Counted from the first letter of the whole stretch, positions 1,984-44,609 are shown. The stretch: 62,910 bases of DNA, filler included, from a bacterium (GCA_037439705.1; 3 parts of 3 records of this genome joined end to end with filler, not necessarily neighbours in it); one strand, 5' to 3'. Notes: generated by a model from the letters alone, not told the origin. A program made the numbers and translations.

Positions 1984-2964
1984 TTTAAGTGTAGGCTCCG
2001 GCGGAAAGAGCATGAGGGAATTCATAGAAAACCTTGTGATGAAGTACATAAATTCGGAAGAACTTAAGGCTCTCGGAGATAGTGCCCATCTCAATATAGA
2101 TGGGAAAATCGCATTTACCACGGATAATTTTGTTGTAAACCCCATATTTTTTCCCGGTGGAGATATAGGAAAGCTTTCTGTTGCTGGAACCGTGAATGAC
2201 CTTGTTGTATCAGGAGCAAAACCATTTTTTCTTTCTTTATCATTAATAATAGAAGAAGGATTTCCTTTAGAAAGTATGGAGAAAATTCTTAAGTCTATAA
2301 GGGNNNNNNNNNNACCAGTATTTCAGCAGGAGTTAAAATTGTAACAGGTGATACAAAGGTTGTAAAAAAAGGAGAGGCAGATGGGATTTACATTAACACA
2401 TCAGGAATAGGCAAGGTGATAAAAAATGAGGAAGAGAAAGTAAAAGAAGGAGACCTTGTAGTCATAACAGGTTCACCTGGAGAACACGGGGTTGCAATTA
2501 TGATTGCAAGAGGAGAATTTGAGTTTGAAGGTGAGGTTTTGAGTGATTGTGCTCCGCTTACTAACCTTCTGACTCTATGGGAAATGAAAGGGGTAAAGTG
2601 GATGAGGGATATAACAAGAGGTGGACTTGCTTCTGTTCTCTGTGAGTTTGGAATGGAGAACAATTTTACGGTCTTCATAAATGAAGAAAAGATACCATTT
2701 TCTCCTCCTGTTAAAGGAGTTTCAGAGATACTCGGCATAGACCCGCTTTACCTTCCAAGCGAAGGGAAGGCGGTTATTGTGATTTCTCCTGATGTAAAGG
2801 AAAAGGTTATTGAATATCTGAGAAAAAAGGTTGACCCCTCAGCAGATGTTATAGGGGAAATAAGAAAAAAAGAAAAGAATTTTTACACAGTCCTGAAGAC
2901 TCTTTCTGGAGGTTACAGGATTCTTGAACTTCTAACAGGTGAACTCCTTCCGAGAATATGCTGA
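1970..2964 (+). CDS. hypE: Carbamoyl dehydratase HypE (spans the 10-N gap at 2304-2313; frame changes only at the gap)
   Basis: FTTDNFVVNPIFFPGGDIGKLSVAGTVNDL, VTGDTKVV, MRDITRGG and the diagnostic C-terminal LPRIC. Confidence 0.95.
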
Positions 2965-4988: not shown

Positions 4989-5017
4989 TTGAAAAAAATT
5001 TTTAAAACAGATATTCT
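4989..5017 (+). promoter_or_regulatory. Putative sigma70 promoter for the ARPP-1/kinase-helicase operon
   Basis: TTGAAA (4989-4994), 17-bp spacer, TATTCT (5012-5017); purine-rich RBS AAGGGGG before the ATG at 5039. Confidence 0.55.
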
Positions 5018-5038
5018 AAACAAAAAGGGGGATAAAAA

Positions 5039-5938
5039 ATGAAACTGGGAGAATGGACGGGAAAAATAAATGTGGAAGATGGGATGGTGTTGAGAAACTG
5101 TCTTCTTTTTCCATTAAAGGTTGAAAAAGAACCAGTTTTTTCTTTCGCAACGGTAGAGGAACTGGTAAATGAAAAAGCTGTCAGGATAGAAGAGTTGAAA
5201 AACCCATCCATAGATTCAGTGAGAATAAAAAATTTTTCTTCAACTCCTGTATTTCTCCTTGACGGGGAGATTCTTGCAGAAGCCTTTCAGACAAGGGTGG
5301 TAAATACTTCACTTATAATAGATGGAATGGAAGAGGTTGTTATTCCTGTAAGCTGTGTGGAAGAGCACAGGTGGAGCGGGAATAACGAATTTGTGGCTTC
5401 AGGAATGGCTTCAACCATTTCTTTGAGAAAGGAATTGATGAAAAGCATTATAAAAAATAAGAGATTCAAAACTGACCAGAGTAAAATATGGAAGACAGTT
5501 AAATCAACCATTAAGGCAACAGGCGTTAATTCTCCGACTTCCTCACTTTACGATGTTTATAAAGCCTATGAATCCAGGGGTTTCATTCCAGAGGACGAGG
5601 AAATAGCACCACTTCTTCATTCTTCAGGGGTGATATGTGCAATTGATGGAAAAGTTGCTGTTATGGATCTATTCCCACCAAAAGAACTTTTTAAGAAGGT
5701 TGCTAAAAAACTAATTGCAGGTTATTTGATTGAAGCCATTTCGTCAAAAAAGGGAAAACTGGATGTAAAAATGAGTGAAATTTCAGCATTTGTGGATTTT
5801 ATAATGAATACTGATGTGAAAAAGGTGTATACGCCAGCAAAAAGTTCCTTTGAATTGAGGTTTTCTCAAGATAAAGTCTTTGGAAGGGCAGTTATATATA
5901 GAGATTCAGCAGTTCACATAACTGGTTTTCCGAATTGA
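5039..5938 (+). CDS. ARPP-1 (DUF6569) family protein
   Basis: Signature IKNxSxxPVFLLDGEILxxAFQTRVVNTSLII...IPVSCVEEHRW, then QSKIW and a C-terminal GVICAIDGKVAVMDLF segment. Confidence 0.8.
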   Translation: MKLGEWTGKINVEDGMVLRNCLLFPLKVEKEPVFSFATVEELVNEKAVRIEELKNPSIDSVRIKNFSSTPVFLLDGEILAEAFQTRVVNTSLIIDGMEEVVIPVSCVEEHRWSGNNEFVASGMASTISLRKELMKSIIKNKRFKTDQSKIWKTVKSTIKATGVNSPTSSLYDVYKAYESRGFIPEDEEIAPLLHSSGVICAIDGKVAVMDLFPPKELFKKVAKKLIAGYLIEAISSKKGKLDVKMSEISAFVDFIMNTDVKKVYTPAKSSFELRFSQDKVFGRAVIYRDSAVHITGFPN

Positions 5939-8550
5939 TAACTTCATCTTTTGGAAAATATCGCATAAAAAAATGGCTCGGAGGAGGGGCATTCGGGGAT
6001 GTATATCTGGCTACTGATACAATTATAGAAAAGGATTTTGCATTAAAGGTTTCAAGGGTAAGAAAGAAGGATATTCAGATATTGAAGGAAGAGGCAAGGC
6101 TTCTTTCCGGATTAAATCATCCAAATATAGTCAGGTTCTACAATGTTGATGAGATAGACGGAAGACTTGTTCTGATTATGGAGTATGTTCCAGGAAGTTC
6201 TTTAAGAGAAATCCTTGACAGAGGAAGGCTTGAGATTTTTAGGGCAGTTGATATTATACTTAAGGTTCTTTCAGGGCTGGATTATGCACATTCATGTGGT
6301 GTTATTCACAGGGATTTAAAACCGGAAAACATCCTTGTTGAGGGCGAAAATGTAAAAATTACAGATTTTGGTCTTGCAAAATTTATAAAAGAGGGTTCAC
6401 TTTCAGCATCAATGGCAGGAACACCTGTTTATATGGCTCCTGAAGCCTGGAGTGGAAAGTATACAGCACTTTCAGATATATACAGCGCTGGTGTAATTCT
6501 CTACGAAGCCTTGACAGGAATAAATCCATTTCTTGACGAAAGCATGGAAAAAGTGAGGGAGAAGATAATGAGGGGAATAAGCACTCCTCCTCCTTCACAT
6601 AATCCGTCAATACCAAAGGAACTGGATGATGTGATTATGAGGGCAATTAGTCCAGAACCATCAAAGCGTCCCCCCAGTGCTTCTTATTTTTCAAATTTGC
6701 TTACATCTTTTTCTGCATCCCGTCCATTTGTTCCTGTTCAGCCGATGGTTTCAGGAACACCCGAAAGAATAGTTTTGACACCGGCTCAGGAAGAAGTAGT
6801 AAAAAGTCCAGAGAAGAGGATTTTTTTGCTTGGAAGTGCTGGAACCGGCAAGACCACTGTGTTACTTCACAGAGCGGTATGGCTTTTAAAAGAGGGTTCA
6901 AAACCTCAGGATTTTCTCATATTGTGTTTCACGAGGAAAGGTGTTAACGACATTTCTTCAAGACTGGAGTTTTTGCTTGGAGCGGAAGGAAGAGATGTTA
7001 TTGTAGATACAGTACACGGATTTTGTGAGAAGATACTCAGGGCGGAGGGAGAAAAAATTGGAATTTCTTCGGATTTCAAGATTATAGACCCATTAAAGGA
7101 AAGGGCAATATATTTTCCTTTAAAAGTAAAGTTTGGAGAAAAGGTAAATTACCTTCTTGAACAGTTGAGTCTTGTAAGAGCCTCCGGTATGACGCCTCAC
7201 CATCCTGAAATGAAAAGCTATTTAAGGGATTTTTACCTTTTCTATTCAGACCTTCTGAGAAAAGAAAATGCTATGGATTTTGATGAACTTCTTATAAATG
7301 CCCGTTTACTTCTCAGAGATAACTTAATGGAGAACTACAGGGAAAGGTTTGAACACATATTTGTTGATGAATTTCAGGATTTATGCCCTGTGCAGTACGA
7401 AATTGTAAAAGAGTTGATAAGTGAGAGAACAGGAGTTTTTATAACCGGTGATGACCTTCAGAGCATATATGGATGGCGTGGTGCAAAGAAGGAACTCATG
7501 AGAAGGGCAATCTCAGAAATTTCCGGAATGAAGGTTTTTAAACTTACAGCCAGTTTCAGACTCAGCGAGAGACACATAAGGATTGCAAGAAATCTTATGA
7601 GCAGAGCAAAAAAAGCTGATGAATTTCTTTCCGAATTTCCTTCCTCATCAATGAAAGAAACAGATGGAAGGGTGGAGATTTACAAGGCAGGTTCAGTTAA
7701 AGAAGAAGCAGATTTTGTATGTATGAAGATAAGAGAAGGTGTGGAAAGGCGCAAAAGAAATTTTTCCGATTTTGCGGTACTCATGAGAACTGCTCATTAT
7801 TCAAGAGAGTTTGAAGAAAAATTTCATTCCAAGGGAATTCCCTATACTTTTATAGGTATGAGGGGATTCTATGAGCGTGAGGAAGTAAAAAATGTAGTAG
7901 AGTTTTTGCATGCCATTTATAGAAGAGACCTTTTAACTTTATCAGAAATTCTTAACTGGATGGTTCGTTCAAGAAAATCTCGTTTTACAGTTCATGAGGG
8001 CGAACTGATGATTAGTGAGGAGACATCTCAATCCCATTTAAAGAAAACGCTGGAATTTGTAAAGGAGGTTATGAAATTGCCGGAGGAGTGGGCACCATCT
8101 GATTTGATAGAATCCATCATAAAAATAACAAAATTTGAAGAAAGGATGAAGAAAAGCGGACCAAAGGGCTTTCATGTTCTTGAGAACATAAAAGAGCTTA
8201 TCTCTTCGGCAAAAAGATTTGGAAAAGGAGAAATTGAACCTTTTGTTCAACATGCAAAACTGCTTGAGGACCTTGAGGTTATTGACTGGAAAAAGAATTC
8301 AGTGAAGATGTTAACAGTTCATTCTGCCAAGGGCTTGGAATTTCCTGTGGTTTTTGTGGTTGGACTTTTTGAGAACATGTTTCCACTTGTTAGAAGTTTC
8401 AGGAGTTCAGAAGAAATGGAAGAAGAGAGAAGGCTTTTGTATGTTGCGATTACCCGTTCAACCGAAGAACTCTATCTTTCCTTTCCAATGACCTACAGGT
8501 TTGGTTCTGTGAAACCATCAAGGTATCTTCTGGATATGGCAGGGATGTAG
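5935..8550 (+). CDS. Hanks-type Ser/Thr protein kinase fused to a UvrD/PcrA/Rep-family SF1A helicase
   Basis: Kinase (aa 1-260): GGGAFG, ALK, HRDLKPEN, DFG, APE. Helicase (aa ~280-871): LTPAQ, GSAGTGKT, FTRK, TVHGFC, DEFQD, GDDLQSIYGWRGA, TVHSAKGLEF, EERRLLYVAITR, PSRYL. The TTG start overlaps the upstream stop. Confidence 0.93.
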   Translation: MITSSFGKYRIKKWLGGGAFGDVYLATDTIIEKDFALKVSRVRKKDIQILKEEARLLSGLNHPNIVRFYNVDEIDGRLVLIMEYVPGSSLREILDRGRLEIFRAVDIILKVLSGLDYAHSCGVIHRDLKPENILVEGENVKITDFGLAKFIKEGSLSASMAGTPVYMAPEAWSGKYTALSDIYSAGVILYEALTGINPFLDESMEKVREKIMRGISTPPPSHNPSIPKELDDVIMRAISPEPSKRPPSASYFSNLLTSFSASRPFVPVQPMVSGTPERIVLTPAQEEVVKSPEKRIFLLGSAGTGKTTVLLHRAVWLLKEGSKPQDFLILCFTRKGVNDISSRLEFLLGAEGRDVIVDTVHGFCEKILRAEGEKIGISSDFKIIDPLKERAIYFPLKVKFGEKVNYLLEQLSLVRASGMTPHHPEMKSYLRDFYLFYSDLLRKENAMDFDELLINARLLLRDNLMENYRERFEHIFVDEFQDLCPVQYEIVKELISERTGVFITGDDLQSIYGWRGAKKELMRRAISEISGMKVFKLTASFRLSERHIRIARNLMSRAKKADEFLSEFPSSSMKETDGRVEIYKAGSVKEEADFVCMKIREGVERRKRNFSDFAVLMRTAHYSREFEEKFHSKGIPYTFIGMRGFYEREEVKNVVEFLHAIYRRDLLTLSEILNWMVRSRKSRFTVHEGELMISEETSQSHLKKTLEFVKEVMKLPEEWAPSDLIESIIKITKFEERMKKSGPKGFHVLENIKELISSAKRFGKGEIEPFVQHAKLLEDLEVIDWKKNSVKMLTVHSAKGLEFPVVFVVGLFENMFPLVRSFRSSEEMEEERRLLYVAITRSTEELYLSFPMTYRFGSVKPSRYLLDMAGM

Positions 8551-8644: not shown

Positions 8645-9907
8645 ATGATGAGAAACTTCATTATAATTTTAATTGTCCTGTTTATTGCAGTGTTTTATCT
8701 TTTGTATCACAATCCCGACCCTGTCTCTTTCAAATTTGGTGGAAAAGAGATAAAAACCTATATACCGATTCTTACAGGAGTTTCTTTTCTTATTGGTGTT
8801 ATTTTTTCTTTTCTCCTTCAACTTTTTTCCATGATTTCTGATTGGGCACGCGATACTTTTATAAAATTTAAAACCTTAAAGGAAAGAAAGGTGATGCGAC
8901 TTCTTTCTTCAGCAAAAGAAGCATTTGAAGTGGGAGATATTGAAGAGGCTTTAAAGATAGCTGAGCAATGTATAGAAATGAAAGCCAGTTCCTCTGATGT
9001 AAATGTTTTTCTCGCAAAACTAAAAATTGCAATAAATTCAGTTGATGATGCTATAAGGATATTGAGGGAAGAGGTCTCAAAAGAAAATCCTCCACTTGAG
9101 ACTGTGCTTATGTATCTTAATCTTTCTCTGAAAAAAGAACTACCAGATGCCATAGAAATTGGAAAAAAGAAATTAGAAAACGATGGAAAGTATCCTATGC
9201 TTTTGAGGGTTATGGCAAGGGCATGTGATCATGATGAGGATCTTGAGTACCAGAGGAGATTACTAAAGATAAACGGATGGGACAGAGAGACAGAGAGGAG
9301 GTATTATGCCTACCTTCTTTTCAGAAGCGGTGAGGAAAAAATGGCAAGGGAAGATGAGGATGGGATAAAGCTCATTAAAAAATCAATGGAACTTTTTCCG
9401 TTTTTTACTCCAGCTGTTAGTGAACTTATAAAACTTCATGTGAAAAAGGGAGAGATAAAAAGGGCGAAGGAACTGACTTATGAGGCTTTTACCAGAAACC
9501 AGTCCCATTCCGTTCTCATTTCACTTGAAAAAGAACTTCTTGATGCAAACCAGCCTGCTGAAGCAATTGAATTTTATAATGAACTTTATGAAAAAATAGA
9601 CGATATTGATATTAAATTTCTCATGGTGAAACTTTTTTTGAAACTTGAAATGATTGAGTCCGCTGAAGAGATTATGAAAGAATTCCCGCAGGAAGTAATT
9701 GATTTAAGACCATTCAAATACCTTTCAGCAATTCTTTTGGCAAAGAAGAAAGATTTTCCCCCCGCTTATAAAATAGTGGAGAACATAATGGAAAGCGGAT
9801 GTTTTAATTTATGGAGGTGCTCTGTATGTAAATGGGACGGTAGCGCTTATTTTATGATATGCCCCAGTTGTGGAAGCGTTGATACGATAAGAATGAATTT
9901 TCAATGA
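8645..9907 (+). CDS. LapA-domain/TPR/rubredoxin-like LPS assembly protein (LapA-LapB fusion)
   Basis: Two N-terminal TMs around NPDPVSFKF (LapA-like), TPR helices, C-terminal WRCSVC...CPSCG as in LapB. Confidence 0.75.
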   Translation: MMRNFIIILIVLFIAVFYLLYHNPDPVSFKFGGKEIKTYIPILTGVSFLIGVIFSFLLQLFSMISDWARDTFIKFKTLKERKVMRLLSSAKEAFEVGDIEEALKIAEQCIEMKASSSDVNVFLAKLKIAINSVDDAIRILREEVSKENPPLETVLMYLNLSLKKELPDAIEIGKKKLENDGKYPMLLRVMARACDHDEDLEYQRRLLKINGWDRETERRYYAYLLFRSGEEKMAREDEDGIKLIKKSMELFPFFTPAVSELIKLHVKKGEIKRAKELTYEAFTRNQSHSVLISLEKELLDANQPAEAIEFYNELYEKIDDIDIKFLMVKLFLKLEMIESAEEIMKEFPQEVIDLRPFKYLSAILLAKKKDFPPAYKIVENIMESGCFNLWRCSVCKWDGSAYFMICPSCGSVDTIRMNFQ

Positions 9908-17534: not shown

Positions 17535-17633
17535 ATGCCTATTCGTCTTGCAGAAATATTTGAAGATGAAAAGTTGGTAGAAAGGATAAAAAGGCGATTG
17601 CCTAAAACCAGGAACAAATCCAAGAGGTGTTGA
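17535..17633 (+). pseudogene. N-terminal remnant of a ThaI-like type II restriction endonuclease
   Basis: Translates to MPIRLAEIFEDEKLVERIKRRLP, which resembles the ThaI-family N-terminus as I recall it, then diverges and stops after 32 aa. Confidence 0.45.
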
Positions 17634-17650
17634 AATCACCAAGGTCTGCT

Positions 17651-18484
17651 ATGACAACGTTTGAAATAGGTTCTACTACTGCTAAAGGTGGTTTTGCAAA
17701 CGAGAAAGCGATATGTAATAAATTCAATAATTGGAAAAGAGATAATGAAGCCCAAATCTGGCTTCAGATTATGGGTTATAACCTAAAAGAGATAGATTCT
17801 GTAGAAGCAATTCAGATACCTACGAGAATGAAAAAAGAGGATGTTATAAAATTAGGCCTCAAAGAAACCTTTGAAGAACTTATGAAATTTAAAAAAGCAG
17901 ACGCCCAGATAAGAATTTTGATTACAATTGGAAAGATACTAAAAGTTGAAAATTCATCTTTAAAAAAGGCAAACTCTGATGCTGATTATAACCAAGTTGA
18001 TAAAAGATGGGTAGATTCATACAAAGAGATGTGGGGGTGTGATGACCAAATAGCTTTTGGTCTGAAATTATTTGCTGGCGAAATCAATCCTTATTCTTAT
18101 CCTGAAATTGTGGGGAATAAAATTTTAAGGGATAAAAGAAGAATTTTTCTTGATGAACTCCCAGAAGAACTCAAAGACAAAATTATAAGGTTCTTCATGG
18201 ATAATAAAATTCTTGTGGTTTCTGATATATTAAAAGGTAGAGGAGCTTTATCTGCAAACTGGATGCTGGTTACAAGATATAATAAAAACGATAATACAAC
18301 TACATGGATATTGAAAGACATTAATACAGCAATGAATTTTTTTGGTTCAGGTTAAGTTAAGATATCGCCAAGGGGTAGTTTATATATTGGCAGAATTACC
18401 GTGCAAAGAAAAGGCGGCACACCAGATCCAACAAAATTACAATTCAAAATAAAACCGTGTGAATTGTTTATGGTAGGGAAATGA
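17651..18484 (+). pseudogene. HinP1I-like type II restriction endonuclease with a premature TAA at 18353-18355
   Basis: GSTTAKGGFANE, NQVDKRWV..YKEMW, DILKGRG..SANWMLV; the frame continues past TAA as VKISPRGSLYIGRITVQRKGG...LQFKIKPCELF to TGA at 18484. Confidence 0.85.
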
Positions 18485-20379
18485 AAATGCTTTGTCTTGC
18501 AAAAGTAAAATTTGATCTGAGAGATCCTGATGAACTTTATTTTTCGCAAAGGGAAATTGATAAATTGTTGGGTATAAAAACAAAGTCTGTAAGGACCATC
18601 GCTTCCCTCACCAAAGAGAGGCGATTTAACTTACTTGATGATGAAGTTATTCATTTGATTAATCGGTTAGTGTATCTGGGCGAGGGACAAGGGTTTTTAG
18701 CAGAAATGCCTGTGAGGGAAATGATAAACACAATAAAGAGGGCAACCTTCTTCAGGGAAATTTATGTGATTTTCGAAAGCAGTAATAATGAGGTGCTAAG
18801 TTGGCTAACTAAAATTGGAGTGCCGATCAGCTCAGAACAATTAGAGAACAGGGTAATAGAACCAAATCCTTACACTCAGATTTTTTTTAAAAGATTTAGG
18901 AAAAGAAAACAAATTAGTAGCGATTAGATTCCTGCCATTTCAAACGCTATTTGAATATGTAACCGAAGTAAAGAAACTTCCCGCGGTTGTTTTCCGTCCA
19001 AAAAACATCAAAAATTGGGAAGAATATTTTAAAGAAAAAGAGACCGGGATTGAGAAAGGGATAAACGAACTTCTTAAACATCTAAAGATGGGGTATTATC
19101 GCTCTCCTCACTTTGGATTGGGAAAAGAACATATTGGAGATTTTATAGATTGGGCCTCCACTGACCTGAGGAAACCTTTTCTTCATTACCTCCATAAATA
19201 TAAAGGAAAAGGTGATCCGAGAATATCTCGCGCCCTAATAAATCTGCTTGATGTTAAGGAAGGGGATATTATCCTTGATCCCTTTGTTGGTTCTGGTGCG
19301 TTTGTTGCTGACGCCCCGACTATGGGAATAAATGCTATTGGAATAGAGATATTAAATATAGGTAAGATGATAGCGGAGGTAAAATGTAATCTGGGAATAA
19401 ATATTGGAAAACTTCGCCAAGCTATAATTAAGCTATTTGAATACATTGATAATAACCGTCATCTCTCTCAACAGAACGGAAAAAACGAATTGACTCAGTT
19501 AAAGGAGAGGATAAGAAAACATACTGCTAATAGCGGTGCGTATAAAAGGATTGAACCTCATTTAGAGAAGATATTTTTGCTAAAGAAATTTATAATAGAG
19601 GAAATAGAAGATGATGAGATAAGAAAGTTTCTTTTAATTCTTTTGAGTCAACAGATCGTTGAATACTCAGAGAAAAATAGGGCTTGGGATTTCGTAAATT
19701 CTTTCAAATCGTATATAGAGGATAGGTATTTGGTTTTATACTCAACCCAGAAATTGGCCGAGATACTTGGTGTGAATTTGGATAGTGGCAAGGTGAAAAT
19801 AATTAGAGGGGATTCCACAAATATGTCAATGTTGAAGGACAATTCTATTGATGGCATACTTACTTCCCCACCCTATTTTGACGCCTTGAATTACATTGGG
19901 AACAACAAAATATCAATTCTAGTCCTCGGTCTAGAGGAAGACCTTATGTGGGGCTCCACAAAAGACTTCTACGAGGCAAAACATAGAAATGAACCCAAAT
20001 ATGATACTTTGCCTCTATTTGTCAGTGATAAATATTTTTCAATAGAACTTCCTTCTTCAAGTTTATATCTTATAGAATTACTTCAAAAATCCCAAAGAAC
20101 ATATAAAGCAGAAGTAGTTGAAAATTATCTCAAGATGATGAAACTTTCATTTGAAGAATGTTACCGAGTATTAAAAGTTAGCAAATATTATCTTATGGTG
20201 ATTAGTAAGTATCATTCTTGGACAATAAATGGTAAAAAAAAGTTATTGAAACCTCGCCTATATTAGCAGACTTGGGAAAATCAGTTGGATTTAGAATAGT
20301 TGATGTTATAGAGCACGGTTTATCAAAAGCAGATGAAGGTAAAATTGTGGTGGAAGATATATTAGTTTTTCAAAAATGA
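18481..20379 (+). pseudogene. Site-specific DNA amino-methyltransferase (TSPPY, likely m4C) with two frameshifts
   Basis: DPFVGSG motif I and TSPPY motif IV; frames join at T8 (18881-18888) and A8 (20234-20241); the last frame reads VIETSPILADLGKSVGF...EDILVFQK*. Confidence 0.85.
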
Positions 20380-29811: not shown

Positions 29812-31429
29812 GTGGCTGGGAAAGCTAAAATATTAATGAGTAAGAGGTTACAATATGAATGCCCTGTATGCGGAAAATCACTTGATGGTTCTTTAGGAGA
29901 GCATATTCGTTCTCTACACGGGGAAGAGGAATTCAAACAAGCATTATTAAAAGCAAAAGAAAAAGGACTTCCTGACCATGAAATTGGTGTATTATTTGGA
30001 ATTACATTCAGACAACTGGAAGAAATTATAACTAGCACATACGGAATAAACATCTCAGTTCTTAAAAAACCTAAAAAAATAAAATACTGGGAACCCAAAA
30101 ATTTTAAAGAAGAAACAACGACTGTCTGGAGCTATAAACAACGAGGAAACTGGGCAACCCATGATGGAAGGTACAGAGGAAATTGGTCACCTTATATCCC
30201 TCGGAATGTAATTCTGAAATACTCTAAACCCGGTGATGTTGTTTTAGATTACTTTGTGGGAGGAGGAACTACTGCGGTTGAAGCAAAATTACTTGGCAGA
30301 AAATGTATAGGTATAGACATCAATCCCGCATGTGTGCGTTTAACTATGGAAAATTTAAATTTCACACCTCCGCAGACACTCTTTCCCTATCCTATATACG
30401 AACCCGATATAAGAGTAGGAGAATGCGAGGTTCTTATCAGGCATACCTAACAATAGCATAGACCTGATCTGTGCACATCCTCCTTATGCAGGGATTATTA
30501 ATTACAGTTCCGGTGTTGATGGAGACCTGTCAAAGCTCAGCGTTGAAGATTTTTTAAATGAAATGAAAAAAGTAGCGGCTGAAAGTTATCGTGTTCTTAA
30601 GCCCGGCAAAAAATGTGCGATACTTATTGGAGATACCAGAAAGCATAAGCATGTGGTTCCAATTGGATTTCAAATAATCAATATCTTTTTAGAAGCTGGC
30701 TTCAAATTAAAAGAGCTGGTGATTAAACGCCAGCATAACTGTAAAACCACAGGGTTCTGGTATGAAAAAAGCATAAAATATAATTTTCTTCTTCTTGCTC
30801 ATGAATATTTGCCAATTTTTGAAAAACCTGAATTCTCAGCCCCTTTTTCAGGAAGAGAAGATAGTGGAGGTTATAGTGGGAGTATGGTTTCTATCCATGA
30901 AAAACCTGTATTAAAAAAGTTAAATAAATTTGAAACCACTACAGTATGGATATTTCCTGAAAAAGAGTTTGAAGAAAGACTAAACACAAATGTAATTGAG
31001 AGATATTCTGGTGGAAGGGAATATTCAACCATTGTTTTAACTACCCACTCCAATAATAAAACAATCTCTTACAAGAATAATGGAAAAAAGAAATTGCAAT
31101 TACTTTTTATTAAGTTACCATTTTTAAAATCAGCTTCCTCCCATTGGGACATTGAACATTATTTAATGGAAACAAAAGGAATTGTGGAAAGAAATTTACA
31201 GAATATCAACAAAGGAGGATTCTTGGTCATTCAAACTCAAGATGTAAGGATGAATGAGTATATCCAGCCACTTGCTAAACGAATAATAGATATATTGCGA
31301 TTTGATAATTTGTGGCTTAAAGAGATCATAGTGGCTATAAAAGAAGGAACGAATTTACATATCCAACACTTTGAAAAAGAACTAAGAATAGTTCATCAAT
31401 ATCTTCTTGTTTATGAGGTAAAAAAGTGA
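29812..31429 (+). pseudogene. DNA amino-methyltransferase (HPPY) with an N-terminal zinc finger; frameshifted at ~30422
   Basis: CPVC...H..H; TTVW, YRGNWSP, DYFVGGGT; removing one A from GGAGAATGCG restores VGDARFLSGIPNNSIDLICAHPPY, in frame with 30563-31429. Confidence 0.85.
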
Positions 31430-42214: not shown

Positions 42215-42314
42215 NNNNNNNNNNNNNNNNNNNNNNNNNNNNNNNNNNNNNNNNNNNNTTAATTAATTAANNNNNNNNNNNNNNNNNNNNNNNNNNNNNN
42301 NNNNNNNNNNNNNN
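42215..42314. other. Artificial contig linker
   Basis: N run with TTAATTAATTAA at 42259-42270. Confidence 0.97.
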
Positions 42315-44609
42315 GCCATTCAACTCTCTTCTTTCAAGAAATTTTCTTTCATCGCCTGTCAAAAGCTTCTGCCTCAGGGATTTGTTTTCCTTCTCCAGTT
42401 CTTTGAGCCTTTTTGACATTTCCTCAATTTTCAATAATACCTCCTCACTGTGACAATGAAGTTCACTTTGAAGTTTTTTCAGGATTTTTTCAATAGAATG
42501 AAAATAGGAAATTGCACCCTCCCCTCCAACAGCCTCCACTCTCCGTACACCTGCCTGAACGCTTGATTGCGAAAGAATTTTAAATGCCTGAGCCTCAACT
42601 GTATTCTTCAAATGAGTCCCCCCGCATAGCTCTTTGCTTATTTCATCTATCTTTATGACCCTCACCACACTTCCATATTTTTCCTCAAAAAGAGCAATAG
42701 CCCCCTCCTTTATAGCGAACTCATAATCCTTTTCTTCAACAATTACCGGATGACCTTCCCCTATCCATTCATTAACAAGACTTTCAATTTTTTCTATCTC
42801 CTCCTCAGAAAGAGGTCTGTGATGACTGAAGTCAAATCTTAACCTTTCGGGAGAAACAAGAGAGCCCATCTGTCGAACATGTTTTCCCAGAACCATCCTC
42901 AAACCCGCATGAAGGAGATGCGTGAGGGTATGATGGATTGCTGTAGCTTTTCGCCTTTTTTTGTCAACCATAGCTATTACTTTCTGCCCTTTTTTCAGGA
43001 TTCCCTTTTTAATTCTAACATTGAGGTATATGAGGTCAATTACCGGTTTTTTGGCGTCCTCAACCTCTGCCTCTCCCTCTTCCCATAAAAGAATTCCTCT
43101 GTCTCCAACCTGCCCTCCTGCTTCTCCGTAAAATGGAGTGGGATTTATTATCACCTCTACCTCCTCTCCCTCAGCCAGAAATTCCTTTTCTCTTCCATTT
43201 GCACTTATGAATACCACATCGGACTCTTCCCTGAGAGAAGAGTAGCCCGTAAAAAGCGTCTTCTTTCCCCTTTCCTTTAACCTCAAATAAATATCCTTTT
43301 CTTCCTTCCAGGAAACCTTTCCGAGGCTTCTCTGTCTTTCCATAAGATGGTTAAATTTTTCTAAATCCAGAACCTTTCCATGCTCCTGAAGGAGTTCAAC
43401 TGTAACCTCTAACGGAAAACCGTATGTATCATAAAGAGTAAATGCAGTTTCTGCAGGAAATTCTTCTTCTTTCACATTCTCCATCTGTTCATAGAAAATT
43501 TTTAAGCCCCTTTCAAATGTGTCTCTGAACCTTTCTTCTTCAGCCCTTATTGACTCCTTTATAATGTCTCTTGACTCAAGAAGTTCGGGATAAGTATTAC
43601 CCATAACCTTTAAAACTTCTTCCGCCACAATCCATATAAAAGGCTCTTTTATCCCGAGAACCCTCCCGAAACGAACTGCTCGCCTCAACATCTTCCTCAA
43701 CACATATCCCCTTCCCTCATTGGAAGGAAGAATTCCATCCGCTATGAGAAAAGCGGATGCTCTTGAATGGTCAACTATTACCCTCATTGCTACATCCGAC
43801 TTTTCTTCCTCTCCGTATTTCTTTCCAGATATTTCTTCAACACTTTTCATAATATCCCTCATTATGTCTATCTCATAATTTCCATTTACTCCCTGAAGAA
43901 CTGAAGCAATCCTTTCAAGTCCCATTCCAGTATCCACACATTTTCTTGGAAGAGGTTCAAGTTTGCCAGAAGGAGTTCTGTTGAATTCCATAAATACCAG
44001 ATTCCATATTTCAAGATATCTGTCACAATCGCAGGTAGGACCGCAGGTAGGTTTTCCGCATCCTGCTGATTCACCCCTGTCCACAATTATCTCTGTGCAG
44101 GGGCCACACGGTCCTGTTTCTCCCATTGACCAGAAATTATCCTCTTCTCCGAGTTTCAGTATCCTTTCCTCTTTTACTCCTATCTCCCTTTTCCATATCC
44201 TGTAAGCCTCGTCATCATCTTTGTAAACGCTGACCCATAGGACCTCAGGAGAAATTCCACAATGTAAGGTTATCAGTTCCCACGCTAACTCAATGGCTGT
44301 TTTTTTGAAGTAATCTCCAAAGGAAAAATTGCCGAGCATCTCAAAAAATGTATGATGTCGGGCGGTTCTTCCAACCCTTTCAAAGTCGTTATGCTTTCCA
44401 CCGGCTCTCACGCACTTTTGAACCGTTGTAACCCTCTTGTGTGGAAATTCTATCTCTCCAAGAAAAATCTTTTTAAACTGGACCATTCCTGCATTTGTAA
44501 AAAGGAGGGTTGGGTCATCTGTGGGGATGAGCGAAGAACTTGGAAGTCTCTTGTGCCCCTTTTCCTCAAAAAATTTTAAAAATCTCTCCCTTATTTCATC
44601 GGTTCTCAT
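42315..44609 (-). CDS. alaS: Alanine--tRNA ligase (C-terminus cut by the contig end)
   Basis: DPTLLFTNAGMVQFK, HHTFFEMLGNFSFGDYFK, EIWNLVFM, HHTLTHLLH, ELCGGTH. Confidence 0.97.

Follow-up and report, generated by a model that had tools for sequence, protein, structure and literature searches.

An ARPP-1 gene and a kinase-helicase fusion gene that recur together in WOR-3 bacteria: a candidate DNA-tracking signaling pair

Two intact, overlapping genes

Two adjacent plus-strand genes were analyzed in a stretch of bacterial DNA of 62,910 nucleotides, filler included (GCA_037439705.1; three parts joined end to end), which is called the window here. The first gene (5039..5938) starts with ATG and encodes an ARPP-1 family protein of 299 amino acids. 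The second (5935..8550) starts with TTG and encodes an 871-amino-acid fusion of a Ser/Thr kinase to a UvrD-type helicase, referred to as KH. A preliminary description, made from the sequence alone, had proposed that the two genes form a self-contained operon and a candidate system for defense or DNA-damage signaling.

The domain assignments of that description agreed with Pfam, in which all matches scored over their cut-offs. ARPP-1 matched PF20208 over profile positions 2-297 of 297 (E 2.6e-58; 198.1 bits, cut-off 27). The N-terminal part of KH is a Hanks-type Ser/Thr kinase domain (residues 9-247, 5959..6675), which matched Pkinase with an E-value of 9.1e-57 and 192.9 bits against a cut-off of 31.7. 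Residues 281-526 matched UvrD-helicase (E 9.3e-55; 186.6 bits, cut-off 23) and residues 537-850 matched UvrD_C (E 2.2e-47; 162.6 bits, cut-off 25.6). These two domains belong to a PcrA/UvrD-type superfamily 1A (SF1A) helicase core that takes up residues 281-871 and, with the stop codon, positions 6775..8550. Kinase and helicase are joined by a flexible linker (residues 260-278, 6712..6768), for which the AlphaFold2 (AF2) predicted local distance difference test (pLDDT) is below 50.

Both genes look intact and functional, as had been stated. KH was aligned with 50 fusion proteins that are 33-81% identical to it. The kinase residues K38, E53, H125/D127, K129, N132, D144-F-G146, and E170 are invariant in 50/50 relatives, and so are the helicase Walker A motif (G300..K306 T307; 300-307), the DExQ motif (D478 E479 Q481 D482), and motifs III, V, and VI. 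ARPP-1 retains all 10 columns that are invariant in 59/59 family members (G76, Q84, R86, C106, E108, R111, R130, Q147, W151, and G197), which leaves its conserved pocket intact. The TTG start of KH agrees with the N-termini of its relatives, whose consensus is MIxxxLGKY...

The genes overlap by 4 nt in the sequence TTGA (5935..5938, plus strand), where the TTG start of KH meets the TGA stop of ARPP-1. The overlap had been noted before, and it suggests that the two genes are translationally coupled. An identical 4-nt overlap was found in the open reading frame (ORF) calls of six related loci (L011, L012, L013, L014, L016, and L018). A Shine-Dalgarno-like AAGGGGG is located 7 nt 5' of the ARPP-1 ATG.

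The operon had also been credited with its own promoter. The promoter-like TTGAAA-17-TATTCT is present upstream of the ARPP-1 gene (4989..5017, plus strand; 9/12 matches), but such sites are no more frequent between 4600 and 10400 than in shuffled sequence (16 vs 13.8 ± 3.2). No terminator-like site was found between the KH gene and the next gene. Because promoter-like sites match the shuffle frequency and a terminator-like site is absent, the sequence does not establish that the operon is transcribed autonomously. The claim that the pair exceeds chance is therefore based on its recurrence in other genomes and not on promoter or terminator signals.

Recurrence and inheritance in WOR-3

The best 120 protein clusters listed for KH were all Pkinase plus UvrD proteins of 815-904 amino acids. 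The named clusters among them came from WOR-3, 'Stahlbacteria', or 'Synergistetes' metagenome-assembled genomes (MAGs). In the first two species-representative genomes found, an ARPP-1 gene lies directly upstream of KH and all other neighbors are different. A broader locus search with the KH alignment picked up generic kinase and helicase motifs. It gave at least 78 kinase-only and at least 2 helicase-only matches, from many phyla, with no full-length fusion among the matches listed, and is uninformative on the spread of KH outside WOR-3.

Distribution was followed in a sample of 151 WOR-3 genomes. KH is present in 47 of them, always with one match per genome, and PF20208 is present in 61. The ARPP tree (77 rows, with 4 duplicate loci dropped) splits into two clades. 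Clade-A proteins are longer, have a hydrophobic leader, occur with or without KH, and are often encoded after a TonB_C gene. Clade-B proteins are leaderless and about 300 amino acids long. The ARPP-1 of the window is a clade-B (cytoplasmic) paralog, and this clade is referred to as ARPP-B. ARPP-B was found in 46 sampled genomes, 45 of which carry KH; put differently, it is present in 45/47 genomes with KH and in 1/104 genomes without it. The exceptions are G117, where KH lies on a 2.6-kb contig fragment, and G152, which have KH without ARPP-B, and G129, which has ARPP-B without KH. The same subclades were recovered in the KH and ARPP-B trees. The pair is thus conserved in other genomes, as its reading as a system had presupposed. 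Separately, the fusion gene at one locus (L107, on contig C1 of G143) is broken by a TAA into pieces of 542 and 350 amino acids, which may reflect pseudogene formation or a fault in the assembly.

Adjacency is less common than co-occurrence. When the 1.5-2 kb beside KH were inspected, ARPP-B was found next to KH in 16/47 sampled genomes, in addition to the window and G001. The ARPP gene is upstream of KH in 14 of these 16 pairs and downstream in 2, and the gaps or overlaps are often 3-8 nt in both gene orders. The genes are unlinked in the other 31/47 genomes. With this and the missing terminator-like site, the idea of a self-contained, closed unit was not supported.

To place KH on a species tree, RpoB was used. 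A match was available for 145/151 genomes, and the six left out all lack KH; the tree is a single-gene FastTree tree. On it, the distribution of KH takes 8 gains or losses, compared with a mean of 39.8 after shuffling, and none of 500 shuffles was as low. Whole clades are filled. Cas1, which is present in 70/145 genomes and served as a control, takes 35 changes on the same tree. Patristic distances for KH and RpoB are correlated (r = 0.83), a value reached by 0/999 permutations. The deepest split of the KH tree is also the deepest RpoB split and separates the same 26 and 21 KH genomes. The operon form is found only in the 21-genome clade (16/21), and the genes are unlinked in 26/26 members of the other clade. 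KH is vertically inherited in WOR-3.

The tree offers 8 phylogenetically independent contrasts in the presence of KH. ARPP-B changes the same way in 6-7 of these and the opposite way in none (sign test, median p 0.016). From these contrasts we conclude that KH and ARPP-B were gained and lost together even when they are not neighbors. It is very improbable that the two proteins have independent functions, with co-occurrence due only to shared ancestry and adjacency due to chance. There are only 8 contrasts, the raw 45/47 overstates the number of independent events because KH and ARPP-B are both clade-restricted, and most pairs are unlinked, all of which would suit independence. However, no contrast disagrees, adjacency is kept in two gene orders with the short gaps or overlaps described above, and a kinase-ARPP-1 complex model scored 0.44 against 0.00 in controls, which is weak support for a contact (see below).

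The organism of the window seems to be a deep relative of WOR-3. Its alanyl-tRNA synthetase (AlaRS) is 45-51% identical both to WOR-3 and to Desulfobacterota-type MAGs, and no named sequence exceeds 48% identity to its DnaB. In an AlaRS tree the window is sister to 19 WOR-3 sequences with 98% SH-aLRT support; this is a single-gene tree, built with every second of 80 non-WOR-3 loci and with one WOR-3 row left out. The AlaRS gene itself (42267-44609, minus strand) encodes 780 amino acids, compared with open frames of 837-985 amino acids in WOR-3, and its identity to the matches found does not exceed about 51%.

KH and the PcrA helicase

KH, which is inherited vertically, could be the PcrA/UvrD repair and replication helicase of the lineage with a regulatory kinase added, and ARPP-1 could be an unrelated neighbor in some genomes. 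The preliminary description had raised the related concern that KH might be the sole, vertically inherited PcrA/UvrD. Vertical inheritance was confirmed. The second part does not apply to 41/47 KH genomes. In these, another gene of PcrA/UvrD type is found at E ≤ 1e-60, and the PcrA model usually gives it 620-860 bits. KH may be the sole PcrA/UvrD in the other six (G063, G098, G108, G143, G147, and G152). These have no other helicase of PcrA/UvrD size, and several of them are the nearest KH relatives of the window. A domain-level search in the six found KH alone in two and KH with an AddA-like protein in four.

G147, G063, and their relatives form a 31-genome RpoB clade. Within it, at least 13/23 KH-lacking members have no TIGR01073 match at 1e-60, and neither do 5/8 KH-bearing members. 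Because so many relatives without KH also lack the match, a missing canonical PcrA is a trait of the clade and is not specifically compensated by KH. KH also scored well under the NCBIfam equivalog cut-offs for pcrA (346.7 vs 911.2), uvrD (294 vs 1144.45), and rep (285.3 vs 951.45). Together with the gain and loss of ARPP-B alongside KH in independent contrasts, these results make it improbable that KH is simply the PcrA of these cells. In a tree of helicase cores, from which four KH rows shorter than 800 amino acids were dropped, a branch with a support of only 55 separates 45 KH cores from 30 WOR-3 PcrA sequences.

Structure models

The AF2 model of ARPP-1 is confident (pLDDT 96.1; predicted TM score, pTM, 0.93). 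Foldseek found no matches to it in the PDB at E ≤ 1e-3. In an exhaustive structural scan with VIA-align, the best Z was 4.5 over 61-71 residues, and the hits were fragments of phage baseplate barrels. The ARPP profile found nothing under E 0.6 among PDB sequences, and a search of the ESM Atlas with ARPP-1 gave no usable match. ARPP-1 is therefore a confidently modeled protein without a solved relative among the structures searched, which does not in itself establish a novel fold. A single-sequence query turned up no longer protein in which ARPP-1 is fused to another part; as evidence, this is weak.

The KH model has a pLDDT of 85.5 and a whole-protein pTM of 0.60; owing to the latter, no fixed docking of kinase and helicase is predicted. 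The kinase appears to be tethered to the helicase rather than docked on it. Residues 281-866 aligned with PcrA (1pjr) at 1e-76 over chain residues 12-639 of 724. Because the alignment ends at residue 639, KH lacks the C-terminal ~85 residues of PcrA. For the kinase (residues 7-262), the nearest solved chains were StkP and PknB, at about 1e-39 to 1e-41.

ARPP-1 had been suggested to act as a partner of the kinase. A complex was modeled with both partners given as alignments, using the kinase domain (residues 1-275) and leaving out the helicase half. The interface score, ipSAE, was 0.44 (runs 0.41, 0.44, and 0.44), and it was 0.00 in all of three controls. The partner pLDDT was 85 and contacts agreed between runs by at least 75%. 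In the calibration, the ipSAE mark was reached by 58/80 solved complexes and 2/110 mismatched pairs, and it was reached at 0.60 or lower by only 7 of those 80 solved complexes, yet by both passing mismatches. The model thus offers weak support for a kinase-ARPP-1 contact, and because independent genomic evidence exists, it was counted as a modest push toward direct contact between the kinase and ARPP-B.

Comparison with known systems

The alignment of KH residues 281-866 spans the PcrA core from one end to the other, and all SF1A motifs of PcrA, UvrD, and Rep (1pjr, 2is1, and 1uaa) are kept. KH differs from these helicases by its N-terminal Hanks kinase, by the missing C-terminal segment, and by its coexistence with a PcrA-like gene in most genomes. 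With PknB and StkP it shares the catalytic Lys, HRD, DFG, and APE residues. In contrast to them, it lacks both a transmembrane segment and a sensor domain, whether PASTA or another, and the 'sensor' would be a DNA motor. It scored 226 against a cut-off of 450 for the Stk1/PknB equivalog.

No named system was recognized, in line with the preliminary description. The best PADLOC matches of KH are to single domains: GajB (3.7e-80, 268 bits), mad6 (4.8e-76, 255 bits), and PD-T4-6 (3.8e-72, 241 bits). ARPP-1 had no PADLOC hits. In NCBIfam, KH scored 205.9 against a cut-off of 460 for MADS6 and 89.8 against 990 for PglW, and no MADS or BREX companion genes were found in the flanks of the pair. The likeness to Gabija, MADS, and PD-T4-6 is at the level of domains only; there is no GajA-type partner in the flanks, and the distribution of KH is not defense-like. 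Near the pair, a GajA model was matched only by SMC, 6 kb away, and this match is weak and generic to P-loop proteins.

The ARPP family was defined by Iyer, Burroughs, Anantharaman and Aravind (2022, Viruses 14:1977; PMC9503650), whose main text describes its fold as unknown and points to a conserved Cys and Gln. There, ARPP occurs in predicted conflict systems centered on ADP-ribosylglycohydrolase (ARG) and rhodanese-type phosphatase, and in two-gene pairs with HIRAN, WYL, or a PF01522 deacetylase. The authors propose that ARPP acts on sugar moieties, with ribose or ADP-ribose as substrates, possibly by SRAP-like covalent chemistry through the conserved Cys. The locus described here resembles those pairs in that the same family, with the conserved Cys (C106) and Gln (Q84; also Q147) retained, is again half of a conserved two-gene pair. 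By analogy with the HIRAN pairs of that main text, the partner may be one that handles DNA 3' ends or single-stranded DNA, as KH would. It differs from the conflict systems described there in being vertically inherited. No ARG or rhodanese-type phosphatase was found by Pfam in the flanks within the window or among 100 flanking ORFs of 29 related loci. The main text of Iyer et al. (2022) contains the word 'UvrD' 0 times and no 'kinase' passage on ARPP. A literature search, which covered main texts, found no description of a pair of ARPP-1 and a kinase-UvrD protein.

Coupling of a DNA-bound sensor to a signaling enzyme is known from the DNA-scanning protein DisA and from the DNA-damage kinases of eukaryotes (ATM/ATR/DNA-PK). 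Their likeness to KH would be one of concept only, with no sequence relationship.

Genomic neighborhood

The window is core chromosome. Upstream of the pair are hypCDE, a TonB-like gene, and a hemerythrin-PAS gene. Downstream are genes for a membrane TPR protein, an acyl-CoA dehydrogenase, rubrerythrin, and SMC, followed further on by DnaB, AlaRS, and pilMNOPQ. The downstream TPR gene (8645-9907) and a 98-amino-acid ORF were considered as third members of the locus and rejected, as they have no downstream counterpart in related loci. The 7 proteins that flank the pair in the window had no PADLOC hits, and the nearest restriction-modification genes are at least 9 kb away. In the relatives, the flanks contain TIM, pantothenate genes, ExbBD, GNAT, TsaD, peptidases, and radical-SAM genes, and they are conserved only within subclades.

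A few relatives have neighbors of another kind. A PLD-like (PLDc_2) gene directly follows ARPP-B at L025 (4703-5311), where the order is KH-ARPP-PLD, and at L095 (686-1492), where a Cas6 gene is nearby. The PLD-like gene is a possible third component in the small clade of these two loci. At L017, a DNA methylase gene adjoins KH.

These neighbors would fit a role in anti-phage defense or abortive infection. In such a role, the UvrD-like motor would sense ends of phage DNA or intermediates of replication, the kinase would phosphorylate proteins en masse and shut down the cell, as proposed for Stk2-like kinases, and ARPP-1 would be a sensor, inhibitor, or effector. The tight two-gene operon with its 4-nt overlap in the window, the matches of single KH domains to GajB, mad6, and PD-T4-6, and the definition of ARPP in predicted ADP-ribose-centered conflict systems (main text of Iyer et al. 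2022) are consistent with this as well. However, the housekeeping PcrA and PknB models match the same domains equally well, KH reached no curated defense cut-off, and PADLOC recognized neither ARPP-1 nor the flanking proteins. Genes that are unlinked in 31/47 genomes are unusual for a cassette that moves as a unit. KH is kept by whole clades in one copy per genome, with 8 changes compared with 35 for Cas1, and it follows RpoB (r = 0.83). With these results and the housekeeping flanks, the defense half of the preliminary proposal fell away as the leading idea, and we consider it unlikely.

Where it is unlinked from KH, ARPP-B lies in places that differ by clade, and some of its neighbors there are related to nucleotides. 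Across an 8-genome RpoB clade, ARPP-B lies directly before the CdaA gene (cyclic di-AMP, or c-di-AMP, synthase; DAC) on the same strand, and the two genes are separated or overlap by 1-4 nt. CdaA was called by Pfam in six of the loci (L047, L054, L079, L081, L090, and L094) and by ORF size and position in two (L091 and L096). In this clade, ARPP-B may be a regulator of CdaA. In a 7-genome clade, ARPP-B is between TPR and NUDIX genes in the three loci scanned (L071, L075, and L085), and a RelA/SpoT gene follows ARPP-B at L045.

One explanation of this pattern is second-messenger or stress signaling, in which ARPP-B binds or processes c-di-AMP, ADP-ribose, or a (p)ppGpp-related molecule and controls the kinase or is controlled by it, and the helicase is mainly a nucleic-acid platform. 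The ribose and ADP-ribose substrates proposed in the main text of Iyer et al. (2022) would agree with it, and the three invariant Arg and the Trp of ARPP-B could form a site for phosphate and a base or sugar. On the other hand, these neighbors are ordinary housekeeping genes that differ by clade. The helicase motifs are invariant in 50/50 relatives, as would be expected of a motor that works and not of a passive platform. We regard this explanation as doubtful on its own; it overlaps the one we prefer more than it excludes it.

Interpretation

We propose that the locus represents, in operon form, a two-protein module for DNA-tracking phospho-signaling that is ancient and vertically inherited in WOR-3, and in which ARPP-B is the partner of the kinase. 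The module would serve chromosomal maintenance and signaling and would not be a mobile immune cassette. We give this reading a probability of about one half. The damage-signaling half of the preliminary description is the best available idea.

KH is predicted to be a PcrA/UvrD-type 3'-5' single-stranded DNA motor, with a Hanks kinase attached at the N-terminal end through some 20 disordered linker residues. The pocket of ARPP-B, with its Cys, Gln, Arg, and Trp residues, suggests binding of, or chemistry on, a sugar-phosphate ligand. The helicase would load on single-stranded DNA at gaps, 3' tails, or stalled forks and translocate along it. The tethered kinase would thus be brought to proteins assembled on that DNA. 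ARPP-B would bind the kinase domain as a regulator, a substrate, or a unit that recognizes a ligand. If ARPP-B is a substrate, residues 164-171 are a candidate region for the phosphorylated site; S169 within it is 98% conserved in clade B only. The ligand might be part of damaged DNA, either a sugar or an end, or a signal derived from a nucleotide. In this way, the state of the chromosome would be converted into protein phosphorylation. We infer the dependence of kinase action on DNA, the kind of ligand bound by ARPP-B, and the direction of signaling.

Several points weigh against this proposal. The ipSAE of 0.44 for the kinase-ARPP-1 model lies in a range where errors outnumber correct calls unless the guess is already likely, and it was obtained with the kinase domain only. 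The CdaA, NUDIX, and RelA/SpoT genes beside ARPP-B could point to nucleotide signaling rather than DNA lesions. A search for a LexA box with six consensus patterns, which may not be those of WOR-3, found one pattern in 1/17 upstream regions of the operon form and none in 25 regions upstream of unlinked KH genes, and no shared palindrome was found upstream. Gene absences are soft because the completeness of the MAGs was not reported, and the RpoB tree rests on a single gene. The first description of ARPP, in the main text of Iyer et al. (2022), placed it in predicted conflict systems, and vertical inheritance does not keep a gene from serving immunity.

A bolder version of the proposed module is a checkpoint-like pathway that predates the WOR-3 radiation. 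The motor would patrol DNA with its kinase, and ARPP-B would recognize a damaged sugar or end, or a nucleotide alarm, and gate the kinase. In the one clade where ARPP-B is translationally coupled to CdaA, the output would enter c-di-AMP signaling. This version is speculative, and we hold it only tentatively. If true, it would describe a bacterial helicase-tethered kinase that signals the state of DNA, and it would be the first function assigned to the ARPP family.

The three domains are well known, but their combination, a DNA motor that carries a kinase together with an obligately co-inherited partner, was in no paper found. If the kinase of KH is activated by DNA, the pair would offer a simple model in bacteria for the conversion of DNA state into phospho-signaling, and the orphan ARPP family would gain a testable partner and a context. 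The locus also calls for caution, as a pair whose domains match defense models behaves as a stable chromosomal function by its distribution, its synteny, and the Cas1 control.

Additional observations

Five clade-A ARPP genes, whose products have a signal-peptide-like leader, directly follow a TonB_C-domain gene (L049, L052, L056, L068, and L069). In 4 other clade-A loci (L053, L057, L061, and L062), the ARPP gene is near a PTS EIIA gene. This arrangement suggests that clade-A ARPP is an exported protein with a different, envelope-related partner.

The window contains type II restriction-modification genes at 17627-18355, 19088-20266, 29812-30450, and 30563-31429 (plus strand). An R.HinP1I-like endonuclease matches only positions 19-166 of a 208-position profile, and a methyltransferase is also present. 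A second methyltransferase is split into two ORFs, which match positions 4-101 and 162-249 of one 249-position model, and is broken. The hypE gene is apparently split as well: its AIRS N-terminal domain (1970-2344) and AIRS_C domain (2416-2964, plus strand) are in different frames about 70 nt apart, the result of a frameshift or a sequencing error.

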